Notes under the pieces: generated by a model
Databases searched by the model: none
Told to the model about the DNA's origin: nothing
Seen by the model: only the letters and a program-made list of their open reading frames with translations
NCBI GenBank assembly: GCA_045863855.1
Contig: BTVV01000014.1
Location: 17,690-81,689, forward strand
Direction: 5' to 3'
DNA length: 64,000 nucleotides
From: Planctomycetota bacterium
GTDB lineage: Bacteria; Planctomycetota; SZUA-567; H5-PLA8
In this document: one piece after another, positions 34,541-39,608 of the stretch
How the letters are laid out: each line of letters opens with the position of its first letter
Position numbering within the stretch: position 1 is the first letter of the stretch
Made by a program: the position numbers and the translations under genes

Positions 34541-35197
34541 CTACCGCGCGGCCAGAATTTCCCGCGCCGCGCGTACGACGCGCCGGCGCAGTGCGTAGCC
34601 GCCGATCATCCCCAGCGCGCCGAAAAGCCCGAGCGGCACGCTCCAGTCCAGGAGGCGTCCGCCCACAAATCCGGGCCAGTTACTGCCGAGATGGATGGCC
34701 AAGGCTAAGGCCATGCAGGCCGGCGAGACGGTGGTGATCCAGCCTGCCGCGATCAGCGTGCTGCGGGCGAGCATGCTCGTGCGCCCCAGCAATTCGGCAT
34801 GCACCAATCCGAGTACGGCTCCGTAGAAGATCCAGGCGACGATCAATGGAGCGAGCCAGATCGATACTTCCCAAACGATGCCCACGCCGGGCGTGGCGAC
34901 CATGATCCCAAACGCCGAGCCCAAGGCGATGACGATGACAAGCCACTCGGCGAGCGAACATTGAAGCCGCCGAAACAATAGGTGCCCGAAGTACATGCCC
35001 AAACCGGCGGCGACGGCCACGTTGGCGGCGCTGCCGACGATTTGCAGCCAAGGGGTGAGGATAAACAGGTTGGCGGCGGTGAAGACAAGGGCCAGCGAAA
35101 CGGCCCAGCGGAGCATGCCTATATCGAAGCCCGCGCGTTTTGCGCGGAGCGAGCGGTTCGTGAGCGGGACGGTCAAGGCCGCGGCTTGCTCGCTCAT
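34541..35197 (-). CDS. Integral membrane hypothetical protein
   Basis: Six to seven hydrophobic segments; overlaps the upstream gene stop. Confidence 0.7.
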   Translation of the reverse strand: MSEQAAALTVPLTNRSLRAKRAGFDIGMLRWAVSLALVFTAANLFILTPWLQIVGSAANVAVAAGLGMYFGHLLFRRLQCSLAEWLVIVIALGSAFGIMVATPGVGIVWEVSIWLAPLIVAWIFYGAVLGLVHAELLGRTSMLARSTLIAAGWITTVSPACMALALAIHLGSNWPGFVGGRLLDWSVPLGLFGALGMIGGYALRRRVVRAAREILAAR

Positions 35198-36702
35198 TCG
35201 CGCAGTTCCTGGGCGGGCGGCTGTTCGGGTTGGGCGGGCGGCAGGCGGAAAACGGGGTCGTCGGCCGGGGCAATAGAGCTGTTGAGCGTGGGCTTGCCCG
35301 ACATCTTCAGCTTTTGAATCGCAGCCTCGGGAATGTGCTCGTTGCTCCAGTGGTTGTAGCCGCCGTCGTCGTGTCCGTCGGCTCCCACGCCGTAGATGCG
35401 CAACAAGCCCGGATGGAGCGGGGGCTCTTCTGGCGCATTGGGAAATTGCCGCACGAAGCCCAGCGGGTCGGAACGACAGCGCAGCGGCATTCCGTTGATC
35501 GTATCCGTGGGTACACGCTCGAGATACTGGGGCGCCAGGTCCTCGATCCGTTCGGGATCGCGCCCGTGCTCTATGCGGTATTCGAGCAGCGCCAGCGCCG
35601 TGTCGGCGGCAAGGGCCTGATCGGCGGAACGAATGTAATTGTCGGCAAAGCGTTCGATGACCGGAATCAGCAACCGAGTGAGCGCGGTGGGGCCGTTCGA
35701 TTGTTCGTTAAGGAGTCGGTCCACGGTTCCGGGCTCGATACGCTTGCCGGCTTGGAGCTTCGCAAGCATGAAGCTGTAGATATTCTCCATCGCTTGGCGT
35801 TCGGATCCATACCAGACGGACCAAACCCCTCCGGCGCGGGGTACGGGAATACCCAGGCCCGCGGCCGCAGGACTTATATTCATTGAAAACATGCCGTCGA
35901 ATGTATACATGCCGAACCGGGATTCGCCGTCCAGCAAACGCGCCGCGCGTTCCAGGGGCTGGCGCTTTAAAAAGTTGGCCGCACGGTAGGCGCGCACGTC
36001 TTCGAGTTGACCGGGCGTATGACGATCCACGATCTGCTGCAAGGTTTGGTCGGCGATGCCGTCCATGGCCACGGCCACCAAGCCGTTGATCAGGATCGGA
36101 TCGGTTTCGGCGAAGCGCGCGAGCCGGTAAATGGCTTTCAGCCGTTTCGCCGCGGCTTTGTGGTCACCGGCTCTGGCATGCCAAAGGGCGTCGAGGGCGA
36201 GAATCCGCGCCGCGCGCCGAAGTTGCGCGAGATGCGGAAGCAGGATCCCGAAACCCTTTGAGTAGTCCAAATTCCAGTGGCTGCGTTCCAGCTCGGCCGC
36301 GCTCAGGAGGTCCAGGAGAGACGTTTGAAGAGCCGCGAACTCCGAGGCCACGTTGGGATCGTCCCACATCTCGGGGAGGTAATGTCCGAGTCTGCTTTCG
36401 ATGTTTTCGGTGGCGCCGGCCGCATAAACAGGAAAAGCCGCAAAGGCCTTATTCAAAGTGAGCGCGGCATTGTGTTCATCAGCCAACGGCGGCGGCGCTA
36501 ATTCGTGTAGACGTTTTTTGCTTTCCGCGTAATTCGCCTGCGGATCGCCGGCGTCTACGCGCATGATGACCAGAGCCAGCCCGACCGCCAGGCCCAGCGC
36601 CAGCGGAAGTTGCCACAGTACGCGGTGACCGGGGCAGAGGTACCAGGCCGCCAAGGCCGCGCGGTCGAGTCTGCCGGATGAAGCAGGCGATTCGGTCTGC
36701 AT
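35194..36702 (-). CDS. Membrane-anchored helical hypothetical protein with pseudopilin-like C-terminus
   Basis: TM helix, NAA motif, LLPHLAQLRRAARIL, PILINGLVAVA, LALLEYRIEHGRDPERIEDLAPQYL, IYGVGADGHDDGG. Confidence 0.75.
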   Translation of the reverse strand: MQTESPASSGRLDRAALAAWYLCPGHRVLWQLPLALGLAVGLALVIMRVDAGDPQANYAESKKRLHELAPPPLADEHNAALTLNKAFAAFPVYAAGATENIESRLGHYLPEMWDDPNVASEFAALQTSLLDLLSAAELERSHWNLDYSKGFGILLPHLAQLRRAARILALDALWHARAGDHKAAAKRLKAIYRLARFAETDPILINGLVAVAMDGIADQTLQQIVDRHTPGQLEDVRAYRAANFLKRQPLERAARLLDGESRFGMYTFDGMFSMNISPAAAGLGIPVPRAGGVWSVWYGSERQAMENIYSFMLAKLQAGKRIEPGTVDRLLNEQSNGPTALTRLLIPVIERFADNYIRSADQALAADTALALLEYRIEHGRDPERIEDLAPQYLERVPTDTINGMPLRCRSDPLGFVRQFPNAPEEPPLHPGLLRIYGVGADGHDDGGYNHWSNEHIPEAAIQKLKMSGKPTLNSSIAPADDPVFRLPPAQPEQPPAQELRE

Positions 36703-36841
36703 CTTCCTATCTTACTTCATCGGTGCTTATCCTTACAGGCGCACTCGTGCGCGTTGACGATGGCCGGTCGTTGGCCTAATCTGCTCCCTCTTTATTGGGG
36801 AGGCGGTGCGGATCCCCGCGAATCGGAAGGGAGCGGTTTCG

Positions 36842-38815
36842 ATGGCGTCGGTGCTTGAAGCCCTGGAAGCTCTGGAGGCGGAGGCGCGCAGCGCATTCGC
36901 CGCGGTGAAGTCGGCCGAGGACCTGGAGAAGGTCCGCATCGAGTACTTGGGCAAGAAAGGCAAGTTGAAGGACGCCAAAGCGCAGGTGGGCCAGGCCGCG
37001 GCCGAAGACCGGCCCAAAGTCGGCGCGCGCGCGAAGGAACTCGAGGCCGCCGTGCAAGTCTGCTTCGAAGAGGCGCAAGCGCGGCTGGTTTCCGGCGGCC
37101 CGGCGCTGAGCGGCGTCGAAGCGCTGCGCGACGAGCGGATCCAGAAGCTGAAGAAGTACGAAGCCGTACACGGCGCAGGCAGCGCGTGGGGCGCGCGCTT
37201 CGCCAACGTCTCGGCCATCGAGGATCTGCGCAAGAAGTTTCCAGCGCTGGCCGAGGGCCAGCCACCGGACAGTAACCAGACCCTGGGCACAGGCCGGATC
37301 GCCGCACGCGTGATGCTGCGCCGCGACCAGTCCAAGAAGCTGATCTTCCTGACGGTGGCCGACCAGTCGGGCGAGTTGCAGGTGGCGCTCTGGAACAAGA
37401 AGCTGCCCGAGGCGGCGCTGGACCTCCTGCGCGAATCGCTCGACCTGTGGGACCTCGTCGGTGTGGAAGGCGAGTTGGCTTACACGCAGCGCGGCGAACC
37501 CACGCTGTGGGCGACGGAGATCAAGCTGCTGACGAAGTGCCTCGCGCCGCCGCCCGAGAAGCACCACGGTCTGACGGACAAAGAGACGCGCTACCGGCAT
37601 CGGCATCTGGATCTGATCAGCAATCCGGATTCGCGCAAAGCGTTCATCACGCGCGCGAAGCTTGTCAGCGGCGTACGGCGCTTCCTCGACGATCAGGGCT
37701 TCCTGGAGATGGAGACGCCGGTCTTGCAAACGATCCCCGGCGGCGCGGCGGCGCGCCCGTTCAAGACGCACCTGAACGCGCTGGGCATCGACATGTTCAT
37801 GCGCATCGCGACCGAGATCCCGCTCAAGAAGCTGCTCGTCGGCGGGCTCGATAAGGTCTACGAACTGGGGCGGATTTTCCGCAACGAGGGTGTGGACTAC
37901 AGCCACAATCCCGAATTCACGACAGTCGAATTGTATCAAGCCTACGCCGATCTGCGGGACATGATGGCGCTCGTCGAGAACCTCGCCAGCCACCTCGCGC
38001 GGGAACTGACCGGCGGCACGACGGTCACGTTCCGCGGCAAGCCGGTGAAGCTCGGCGCGCCCTGGCCGCGGCTGGACTATTGCGAACTGCTTGAAAAGCA
38101 CGCGGGCGTGAAGGCGACCGACGAAGCGGGCCTGGACCGCAAGATTCGCGAGGCCGGCGAGAACCCGGAAGGGCTCTCGATGGTGGACAAGATCGATGCG
38201 GTCTTCGGCACGTACGCCGAACCGCACCTGACCGACGCGTGCTTCGTGATCAACCAGCCCGTCGAGATGAGCCCGCTGTGCAAGGCGCATCCGGAGGATG
38301 CGGCGAAGGCGCACCGTTTCGAGGCGTTTGCGGCGAGCATGGAGATCGCGAACGCGTACAGCGAGCTGAACGATCCGTTGGAGCAGCGCAAGCGGCTGGC
38401 GGCGCAGATGCGCGAGACTTGGGCGAAGTTTATGCGCGAAGTGCTGGATGAGCCGGGCGCTTCTATCGGAGCCGATTTGAAGATCGGGATCGAAGGCCTC
38501 GTGCAGCGGGTCGAGCATTCGGCCGACTGGCAACCCACCGGCGACTCCGATGCGAACCGCCTGCTGCGGTCGATCGAGGCTCAGGTCAAGACCTGGAAAC
38601 GGAAGGACTATTTTTTCGAACGCATGCAGCGCCTGGAAGATCCGTCGCTGTTGATCGACGAAGACTTCCTCCACGCGCTCGAGCACGGCATGCCGCCCGC
38701 CGGCGGGATGGGCATCGGGATCGACCGCGTCTGCATGCTCATCACGGGCTGCGATTCGATCCGCGACGTGATTCTGTTCCCGCTGATGCGGCCGGAGAAG
38801 GGGAGTGGGCAGTAA
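36842..38815 (+). CDS. lysS: Class II lysyl-tRNA synthetase with N-terminal PheRS-alpha-like arm and C-terminal insertion
   Basis: OB anticodon domain, PEKHHGLTDKETRYRHRHLDL, ETPVL..GGAAARPF, RIFRNEG..HNPEFT, EIANAYSELND, GMPPAGGMGIGIDR...IRDVILFP. Confidence 0.97.
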   Translation: MASVLEALEALEAEARSAFAAVKSAEDLEKVRIEYLGKKGKLKDAKAQVGQAAAEDRPKVGARAKELEAAVQVCFEEAQARLVSGGPALSGVEALRDERIQKLKKYEAVHGAGSAWGARFANVSAIEDLRKKFPALAEGQPPDSNQTLGTGRIAARVMLRRDQSKKLIFLTVADQSGELQVALWNKKLPEAALDLLRESLDLWDLVGVEGELAYTQRGEPTLWATEIKLLTKCLAPPPEKHHGLTDKETRYRHRHLDLISNPDSRKAFITRAKLVSGVRRFLDDQGFLEMETPVLQTIPGGAAARPFKTHLNALGIDMFMRIATEIPLKKLLVGGLDKVYELGRIFRNEGVDYSHNPEFTTVELYQAYADLRDMMALVENLASHLARELTGGTTVTFRGKPVKLGAPWPRLDYCELLEKHAGVKATDEAGLDRKIREAGENPEGLSMVDKIDAVFGTYAEPHLTDACFVINQPVEMSPLCKAHPEDAAKAHRFEAFAASMEIANAYSELNDPLEQRKRLAAQMRETWAKFMREVLDEPGASIGADLKIGIEGLVQRVEHSADWQPTGDSDANRLLRSIEAQVKTWKRKDYFFERMQRLEDPSLLIDEDFLHALEHGMPPAGGMGIGIDRVCMLITGCDSIRDVILFPLMRPEKGSGQ

Positions 38816-38819
38816 GGCG

Positions 38820-39608
38820 CTACAGCGTCCTTATATGAAACCCGCCGTCCACGTCGAAGACGGCGCCGGTGCTGAAGGGGAAGCTGCCGCGCAGGATGGC
38901 GCCGACGGCCAGCCCGATATCTTCCGGCGTGCCCCAGCGTTTGATCGGGGTCAGGCCGCCTTCGATAAGCTTGTCGTACTTCTCTTTGACGCCGCTGGTC
39001 ATGTCGGTCGCGATCACGCCGGGGCGGATTTCGTAAGCCAGGATGTTCTCTTCGGCCAGGCGCGCGGCGAAGAGCGCCGTGACCATACCGAGGCCCGCCT
39101 TGGCAATGCAGTATTCGCCGCGGTTGACCGAGGCCGTATACACGCTGATCGAAGTGATGTTGACGATGTAGCCGCGGTCGAGCTTGCCTTCCTTGCGGAG
39201 TTGGATCATGCGCCGCGCGGCTTGCTGAGTCAGGAAAAACGGGCCTTTCAGGTTCACGTCGAGGACGCGGTCGAAGCTCTCTTCGCCCATTTCGAGCAAG
39301 TCCGCGCGCTTCTGCGGCGCGACGCCCGCATTGTTGACCAACGCGGTGAGTGTCCCAAAACGTTCGACGGCGAAGTCGAGCATGTATTTGCGCTGCGCGG
39401 TCTGGCTCAGGTCGGCCTGCACGGCGGCGGCTTGCCCGCCGGCCTGTTCGATCAGGCCCACGGCTTCCTTGGCCGCGTCGGCGTTGGAGGCGTAGTTGAT
39501 CACCACTTTCCAGCCTTGGCGGCCGAGTTCCACCGCGATCCCGCGCCCGATGCCGCGGCTGCCGCCTGTCACCAGCGCCACGCCCGTCTGTTTCGCCGTC
39601 TCGTTCAT
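38820..39608 (-). CDS. SDR oxidoreductase (3-ketoacyl-ACP reductase-like)
   Basis: [17 protein letters not shown] catalytic YxxxK, PG, VDGG. Confidence 0.95.

Follow-up and report, generated by a model that had tools for sequence, protein, structure and literature searches.

A hallmark attributed to the aminoacyl-tRNA synthetases of eukaryotes is the presence of appended domains that bind tRNA. Among class II enzymes, SerRS carries an N-terminal coiled-coil arm with which it touches parts of the tRNA other than the anticodon. Phenylalanyl-tRNA synthetase (PheRS) bears a helical domain, alpha1 (PF02912; PDB 7ka0, 7k98, 4p71, 3pco, 2iy5), at the N-terminus of its catalytic alpha chain (PheS). 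This domain binds the D-loop region and the T-loop of tRNA(Phe) (G19/U20, C56/G57 and G45). In the Mycobacterium tuberculosis enzyme a linker of 14 residues connects alpha1 with the catalytic domain, and the tRNA that alpha1 contacts is bound to the other heterodimer (PMC8136816). In eukaryotic lysyl-tRNA synthetase (LysRS), an N-terminal appendage has been described that is highly basic, disordered until tRNA is bound and "absent in their prokaryotic counterparts" (PMC6213541). The N-terminal helix of the human enzyme reaches the T-loop base and the elbow of tRNA(Lys3) (PMC11643047), so that the elbow is within reach of an N-terminal appendage in class IIb LysRS. Here we describe the lysS gene in a 64,000-nucleotide stretch (the window) of a Planctomycetota bacterium (GCA_045863855.1, contig BTVV01000014.1), which encodes a LysRS with a PheS-type arm at its N-terminus.

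A complete LysRS preceded by a PheS-type arm

The gene occupies positions 36842-38815 of the + strand, stop codon included, and its translation is a class II (IIb) LysRS of 657 amino acids (aa). Residues 97-657 form a complete LysRS above the cut-off of the NCBIfam model lysS_bact (TIGR00499; 505.8 bits, cut-off 427.6), with profile positions 7-437 falling on aa 97-525. To this extent the protein resembles canonical bacterial class II LysRS (TIGR00499; PDB 3a74, 1bbu, 1e1o). It differs from these by about 95 extra N-terminal residues, comprising arm and linker, and by a 74-residue insertion where 3a74 has 5 residues. Three Pfam domains follow one another in a single frame, namely PF02912 (aa 24-82; E 2.5e-13, 50.2 bits, cut-off 22.3), PF01336 (aa 152-230) and PF00152 (aa 246-525 and a second stretch), so the arm is followed by PF01336 and PF00152 and not by the PheS core PF01409. 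Both the oligonucleotide-binding (OB) anticodon-binding domain and the class IIb core with motif 3 are present, as judged from these domains and from the alignment to residues 12-435 and 441-491 of PDB 3a74_A. The first-pass annotation, made from the sequence alone, had proposed a PheS-type arm in frame with a complete class II LysRS, quoting a peptide that corresponds to residues 8-67 of the translation and placing the arm at 36842-37090, that is, residues 1-83; the PF02912 and TIGR00499 scores bear this out. The features of the gene are as follows.

36830..36833, + strand: Shine-Dalgarno-like GGAG, read from the sequence, 8 nt before the ATG
36842..38815, + strand: lysS fusion gene, 657 aa (open reading frame; TIGR00499, 505.8 bits)
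36842..37096, + strand: PheS alpha1-type helical arm, aa 1-85, with the Pfam match at aa 24-82 (36911-37087); PF02912, models, Foldseek, dN/dS
37097..37117, + strand: flexible linker, aa 86-92 (pLDDT < 50 at residues 86-90; comparison of homologues)
37118..37171, + strand: N-terminal helix of LysRS itself, aa 93-110 (TIGR00499 from aa 97; query 99-525 on 3a74_A 12-435; model helix 91-110)
37295..37531, + strand: OB-fold anticodon-binding domain, aa 152-230 (PF01336, 48.5 bits)
37577..38416, + strand: class II catalytic core, first part, aa 246-525 (PF00152 profile positions 1-256)
38417..38638, + strand: family-specific helical insertion, aa 526-599 (comparison with 3a74_A, model, 37 homologues)
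38639..38791, + strand: catalytic core, last part with motif 3, aa 600-650 (3a74_A residues 441-491; TIGR00499 positions 440-496)

The open reading frame ends at 38815 and can start at GTG 36806 or at ATG 36842. In an alignment of 37 homologues (56-80% overall identity to the window LysRS), the ATG coincides with the N-terminal Met in 35, and the other two have longer predicted N-termini. A consensus scan of 36500-39000 gave no sigma-70-like promoter.

Other identities of the protein were rejected. The PheS model TIGR00468 scored 28.3 bits against a cut-off of 237, and the PheS core PF01409 matched only locally (29.3 bits, aa 339-386) within the LysRS core. LysX, the MprF-LysRS fusion, is likewise a natural N-terminal fusion to a class II LysRS. 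However, the N-terminal part encoded in the window is not a membrane lysyl-phosphatidylglycerol synthase, and the LysX model NF002821 scored 434.7 bits against a cut-off of 742. The score of the EpmA model was far under its cut-off.

The arm is homologous to the PheRS alpha1 domain

At E <= 1, residues 1-95 matched six PDB sequences, all of them N-termini of PheRS alpha chains; the best was 4p71_C (E 3.1e-8, query 6-77 on chain 2-73). A profile alignment of nine LysRS arms (A2) matched ten PheRS alpha sequences in the PDB with E values from 8.5e-16 to 1.2e-3, the Mycobacterium tuberculosis enzyme among them, and beyond PheRS gave only noise at E about 0.2 (SMC5, ApoE). The AlphaFold2 (AF2) model of residues 1-85 alone had a mean predicted local distance difference test score (pLDDT) of 90.9 and a predicted TM score of 0.73, with helices at residues 4-20, 25-36, 41-51 and 57-84. 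In the full-length model the arm had a pLDDT of 80-94; the overall mean of 68.1 is low because the catalytic core was poorly modelled from a shallow alignment of 37 rows.

When the arm model was compared with the PDB using Foldseek, the 13 best listed rows were PheRS alpha chains (TMq 0.72-0.82, root-mean-square deviation 1.8-2.6 Å, 77-86 columns), including M. tuberculosis PheRS-tRNA complexes, a SYFA-SYFB model and the A. baumannii enzyme. Their E values ranged from 2.1e-3 to 2.6e-2, none reaching 0.001, as expected for a helical query of 85 residues, and the first row other than PheRS had an E value of 0.86 and a TMq of 0.39. SerRS belongs to a different family; its arm-bearing chain 1sry_A ranked 41 (E 3.0, TMq 0.35). 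Sequence matches and predicted fold thus both identify the N-terminal segment as a PheS arm, as had been suggested.

LysRS arms and PheS arms share the motifs R-x-x-Y/F-L-G-x-x-G-x-L and E-x-K/R-P-x-x-G, and the motifs kept in LysRS arms are those kept in PheS arms generally. Besides homologous sequence, predicted fold and conserved motifs, the window arm has in common with PheRS alpha1 its place at the N-terminal end of the catalytic chain of a class II synthetase and its short flexible tether. The two differ in context: here the arm sits on a LysRS body consisting of an OB fold and a class IIb core, presumably a homodimer lacking a beta subunit, whereas the PheRS arm acts beside elements of the beta subunit on tRNA(Phe). 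Residues 1-81 contain 14 Lys/Arg and 15 Asp/Glu, a net charge of -1, and the mean over 16 LysRS arms is +0.2. Net charge is thus about zero, like that of PheS arms, and a basic patch was ruled out on these grounds.

The claim that typical bacterial LysRS has no such arm also stood: PF02912 was found in 0 of 11 arm-less LysRS compared with 12 of 12 fusions, where it scored 42.7-74.5 bits, and the arm matched no solved LysRS.

The fusion is real and is the only LysRS of the genome

In the window genome (G000; 6.93 Mb, 287 contigs, 93.9% complete) PF02912 matched at just two places, namely lysS of the window and a frame of 377 aa on contig C5. The latter is an ordinary PheS of 349 aa with PF02912 at 65.1 bits and the PF01409 core; pheS thus keeps its own arm, a point on which the first-pass annotation had asked for a check. 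The window gene is the only lysS_bact match above the cut-off in G000, matches on contigs C16 and C52 reaching just 20-100 bits, and no class I LysRS was found above the cut-off in this assembly. It is therefore the organism's only LysRS, as judged in an assembly 93.9% complete, where an unassembled copy is possible.

We compared 16 other genomes of the planctomycete family to which the window genome belongs (f1). At least two PF02912 matches were present in 14 of the 16, and 12 contained the whole fusion, with arm and LysRS body in a frame of 671-779 aa; one of these whole fusions is located on a contig of 2.76 Mb. In G013 and G014, LysRS-type arm fragments run into contig ends. G008 and G012 gave no lysS match above the cut-off, indicating that lysS was simply not assembled there. 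Single Logan contigs from two other studies, X4 record 12 (36650-37704, 2 differences) and X5 record 20 (36650-37404, 0 differences), contain arm and linker together with the DNA upstream of them and the LysRS body behind them; they supply the DNA spanning the junction that had been called for as a check. A contig of a metatranscriptome library (X18 record 8) covers 36810-37138 with 13 differences, which is presence in an RNA library and not proof of transcription; the same limit applies to the RNA-library contigs of related strains, of which X17 covers 7 of 30 bins and X18 16 of 30.

In a collection of 5.8 billion proteins, 53 of the best 120 homologues (52-98% identity) carry PF02912, PF01336 and PF00152. 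Six of these 53 have an NCBI organism name, in each case Planctomycetota or Planctomycetes bacterium, and are annotated as lysine--tRNA ligase, hypothetical protein or OB-fold protein. Below the fusions in the ranking come planctomycete LysRS of about 477 aa that have no arm. Taken together, the fusion is real and not an assembly artefact.

The arm probably derives from the pheS gene of the same lineage

A hidden Markov model (HMM) built from LysRS arms matched f1 PheS arms over their full length with 78-101 bits in 16 of 17 cases, the remaining one being the aberrant PheS of G001. The same HMM gave 37-80 bits with PheS arms of other families of the class and 30-77 bits with those of the rest of the phylum. 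Both arm types, f1 PheS and LysRS, open with M-x-L-L-D-D-L, and over 59 residues the lysS and pheS arms of G000 share 41% identity. A maximum-likelihood tree was computed from 65 arms over 81 columns, with one duplicate fragment left out; in it the 15 LysRS arms formed one clade (support 98/89, starred). This clade was nested within a clade of 31 rows that held only these and 16 f1 PheS arms (88/82, not starred), and the sister group of the latter consisted of seven PheS arms of the class, from families f4 and f7 (99/93). Deeper forks of the tree are weak because of the few columns.

Since the LysRS arms form one clade among the f1 PheS arms, a single event is probable, namely the duplication of the 5' end of pheS from the same lineage, together with its start codon, onto lysS in or near the ancestor of the family. 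The domain transfer between synthetases that had been postulated thus agrees with the arm tree, and the fusion would provide a dated example, within one family, of within-genome domain shuffling between synthetases.

The pheS of the same-genus genome G001 (L043, G001:C2:1234589-1236000) has an aberrant arm, with 23.9 bits for PF02912 and 15.6 bits for the LysRS-arm HMM, a very long branch in the tree and an odd composition; its catalytic core is normal (298.5 bits). The N-terminus of this protein may have been replaced or may be evolving fast.

The arm is under purifying selection

The ratio of non-synonymous to synonymous substitution rates (dN/dS, Nei-Gojobori) of the arm was 0.11 against the closest relative, G002 (8 synonymous and 3 non-synonymous changes), and 0.29 against G001. 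The corresponding values for the two comparisons were 0.01 and 0.11 for the catalytic core and 0.025 and 0.215 for the insertion. Across the 37 fusion proteins, mean column identity was 0.70 in the arm, 0.85 in the OB fold, 0.84 in the core and 0.31 in the insertion. The arm is thus under purifying selection. These values bear on the idea that it is a neutral or untranslated relic, with translation starting downstream or the segment being tolerated as junk. The arm is known from genes alone, and the RNA-library contig X18 record 8 cannot prove transcription or translation, which would leave room for such a relic. However, besides the low dN/dS of 0.11-0.29, the domain is conserved from the shared Met in 35 of the 37 proteins, there is no in-frame ATG between codons 1 and 158 of lysS, and the predicted fold is confident (pLDDT 90.9). 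We therefore regard a relic as extremely improbable.

Taxonomic range of the fusion

Two points go beyond the first-pass annotation, namely the insertion in the catalytic domain and the confinement of the fusion to one family among the genomes searched. Six other families of the order or class were represented by 24 relatives, and each of these genomes had one PF02912 match (none in G034), in a frame of at most 451 aa. The 21 whole LysRS of these families gave single continuous TIGR00499 matches of 478-492 residues, with neither arm nor insertion. The single data point for family f2 is the unpublished genome G017, and the result is unchanged if it is dropped. Across the phylum, 301 evenly sampled genomes were judged from match counts per genome, and a second strong PF02912 match occurred only in f1, in five of six members plus G000, the sixth member being G012.

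Five other genomes of this sample had two matches, and none was accepted as a LysRS fusion. The second matches in G215, G231, G290 and G271 were weak and in frames of 435-480 aa (weak second matches: E 1.8e-6 to 8.9e-4), and G270 had two frames of PheS size. Long PF02912 frames outside f1 in G080 and G198 were rejected as well, being on other contigs than lysS. Three of the weak matches, L017 (G290:C201), L018 (G231:C6) and L019 (G215:C69), belong to family f29; they lie in frames of 435-436 aa and cover profile positions 18/19 to 52/55 with E values of 1.8e-6 to 4.5e-4. Given their SerRS size, they may represent the helical arm of another synthetase.

A pattern scan of 185,579 species genomes, based on a closer arm alignment (A3), gave 71 loci, of which 61 were PheS and ten had LysRS-type arms, seven with a LysRS body and three at contig ends. 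All ten are titled Planctomycetota bacterium; the two A3 peptide patterns fit the main clade only, and the ten loci may overlap the f1 genomes already counted. A word-indexed protein search with residues 1-95 returned seven proteins (three fusions and four PheS). The exhaustive profile search with A2 returned 7075 proteins at E <= 0.001, the best 150 being mostly metagenomic fragments. Nine of the matches had odd lengths and were scanned; they were pieces of PheS, pieces of the LysRS fusion or tandem-repeat assembly artefacts. No new PF02912 architecture appeared among these nine proteins from the best 150 of 7075, a survey that is not exhaustive. The fusion was accordingly found in one family only among the genomes searched, which does not prove its absence elsewhere.

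PF02912 occurs twice in each of three short proteins predicted from metagenomic fragments, P0126, P0207 and P0227; in P0126 the sequence repeats exactly in tandem, as in a wrapped-around contig, and the two copies of P0227 have diverged.

No description of a PF02912-LysRS fusion was found in a literature search that covered titles and the beginnings of abstracts, with subscription journals and InterPro architecture pages outside its scope. The parts, a lysS_bact body and a PF02912 arm, are known, and their combination is without description in the literature searched.

Linker and insertion in the catalytic domain

The linker equivalent is 11-59 residues long in the 37 homologues, consists to 54% of Ala, Ser and Gly, and is followed by the N-terminal helix of the enzyme itself. 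Within the catalytic domain, a second addition is located between ELNDPxEQ and DEDF, where the window protein has 74 residues (aa 526-599) and 3a74_A, the best PDB relative, has 5 (436-440). It was modelled as four helices with pLDDT 85-92. Among the 37 homologues it varies from 51 to 135 residues with a mean column identity of 31%, and is thus hypervariable; its comparison with PDB sequences gave nothing below E 0.5. The insertion is present in every assembled f1 lysS and missing from the LysRS of six other families, and the split TIGR00499 match occurs in f1 only. Thus, the insertion was gained in the same family as the arm.

This shared range, with arm and insertion in all assembled f1 lysS and in 0 of 21 whole LysRS from six other families, would fit an arm that acts within the enzyme, docked on the body and perhaps on the insertion as a structural or regulatory lid. 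However, the linker is of low complexity and varies from 11 to 59 residues, and the pairing of a hypervariable insertion (31%, 51-135 residues) with a conserved arm (70%) would be odd for a fixed interface. We consider such a lid quite unlikely. A complex prediction of the arm (aa 1-95) with the body (aa 96-657), using alignment A1, gave a score of 0.00 and a mark of 0.32, which constitutes no verdict and was used neither way.

Two further LysRS attracted attention. The 588-aa LysRS of Dehalogenimonas (P0116) has an insertion at the same spot. In an arm-less LysRS homologue of 646 aa from ENA (P0058), some 190 residues, from the OB domain to the start of the core, are duplicated in tandem within the protein; this duplication is either real or an assembly artefact.

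A putative role in binding the tRNA elbow

By analogy with PheRS, we consider it rather likely that the arm, arisen once by duplication of the pheS 5' end, would act on LysRS as an auxiliary binder of the tRNA(Lys) elbow that raises affinity or catalytic efficiency. It would grip the elbow as in PheRS, at G19/U20 of the D-loop and C56/G57 of the T-loop, and the same tRNA(Lys), with its anticodon on the OB domain, would have its acceptor end in the active site, either of that subunit or of the other one in the dimer. Tethered by the linker, the arm would strengthen tRNA(Lys) binding, be it to the subunit that carries the arm or to the opposite one. The elbow nucleotides contacted by alpha1 are nearly universal among tRNAs, and both ordinary tRNA(Lys) genes of G000 have G19, U20, G45, C56 and G57. 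In M. tuberculosis PheRS, G19/U20 are contacted by Arg45, Arg56 and Asp37, C56/G57 by Asn64, Ala57 and Arg45, and G45 by Thr32 (PMC8136816). Of the two roles proposed in the first-pass annotation, a tRNA-binding arm and a protein-interaction handle, the former is favoured, by homology and by the geometry described in these papers only.

Several points weigh against elbow binding or at least do not speak for it. According to an ungapped and hence tentative mapping onto 7daw_A (query 4-76 on chain 4-76), the position of Arg56 is Lys or Arg in all nine arms of A2, and that of the T-loop contact Asn64 is Asn in seven of the nine but Lys in the genus of the window. Unlike the helix of eukaryotic LysRS, the arm has no basic character. 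Every tRNA on PheRS is in contact with all four chains (PMC8136816), and an isolated arm may therefore bind weakly. Both ordinary tRNA(Lys) genes are normal, with 76 nt and a variable loop of 5 nt, and the PF01336 score of the window protein (48.5 bits) is within the range of arm-less LysRS (46.3-62.9). A degenerate anticodon-binding domain was rejected, as PF01336 scores of 39-52 bits in the fusions overlap those of 46-63 in arm-less LysRS. With ordinary tRNA(Lys) and OB domain, there is thus no visible deficit for the arm to compensate, and the sister families manage without it. In addition, the co-gained insertion might be the real partner of the arm.

The arm could alternatively be a handle for protein-protein contacts. 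In a small bacterial multi-synthetase assembly, it would tie LysRS either to PheRS, with the beta subunit or the coiled-coil extension of that subunit as a possible contact site, or to a different partner; or else it would bring the dimer's two arms together. Helical hairpins commonly mediate protein contacts, G19 in the M. tuberculosis PheRS complex also contacts the coiled-coil extension of the beta subunit beside alpha1 (PMC8136816), and eukaryotic synthetase appendages commonly serve complex assembly (PMC6794377). Nevertheless, no partner gene adjoins lysS, the excerpts of the PheRS literature consulted treat alpha1 as a tRNA binder, and the motifs of the LysRS arms are those of PheS arms generally; we thus regard a handle as unlikely.

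Of the 78 tRNA genes of the genome, 26, for most amino acids, form an array of 4.5 kb on one strand outside the window (G000:C1:23667-28178). Among them are divergent second genes for tRNA(Lys), CTT and TTT, and for tRNA(Phe). The arm might bind another RNA or have a non-canonical role, either in autoregulation via lysS mRNA or in charging the divergent tRNAs of this array. The second tRNA(Lys) genes (G000:C1:27218-27403), together with the nature of an elbow-binding module largely independent of tRNA sequence, would speak for this. However, the array spans most amino acids, yet only LysRS has an added arm, as indicated by the two PF02912 matches in the genome. Such a role appears very unlikely to us.

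In a further scenario, which we judge quite improbable, arm and insertion would together change how LysRS works. They would either tie it to PheRS through the old contacts, giving a first bacterial multi-synthetase complex by domain duplication, or provide an identity or quality check of the elbow and its modification (D20), as in human LysRS.

If the arm does bind the elbow, bacteria would have evolved, independently, an equivalent of the tRNA-binding helix found at the N-terminus of eukaryotic LysRS. The two occupy the same end of the same enzyme, with an elbow role known for the human protein and proposed here. They are not homologous, and the highly basic eukaryotic domain that is disordered until tRNA is bound (PMC6213541) contrasts with an arm of about zero net charge that is predicted to be folded, so that the latter is an analogue at most. 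A bacterial family would have built the equivalent by copying the elbow-binding module of PheRS onto LysRS and would have kept it in its only LysRS. The fusion may thus serve as a natural experiment on whether the PheRS alpha1 arm is a portable module independent of tRNA sequence, on how appended domains become fixed in essential enzymes and on whether elbow binding improves LysRS kinetics.

Neighbouring genes

Directly upstream of lysS, an unannotated open reading frame of 502 aa (35194-36702, - strand) matched no Pfam family at E <= 0.001. The other neighbours are a short-chain dehydrogenase gene, which is also on the strand opposite to lysS, and a gene for an M48 peptidase.

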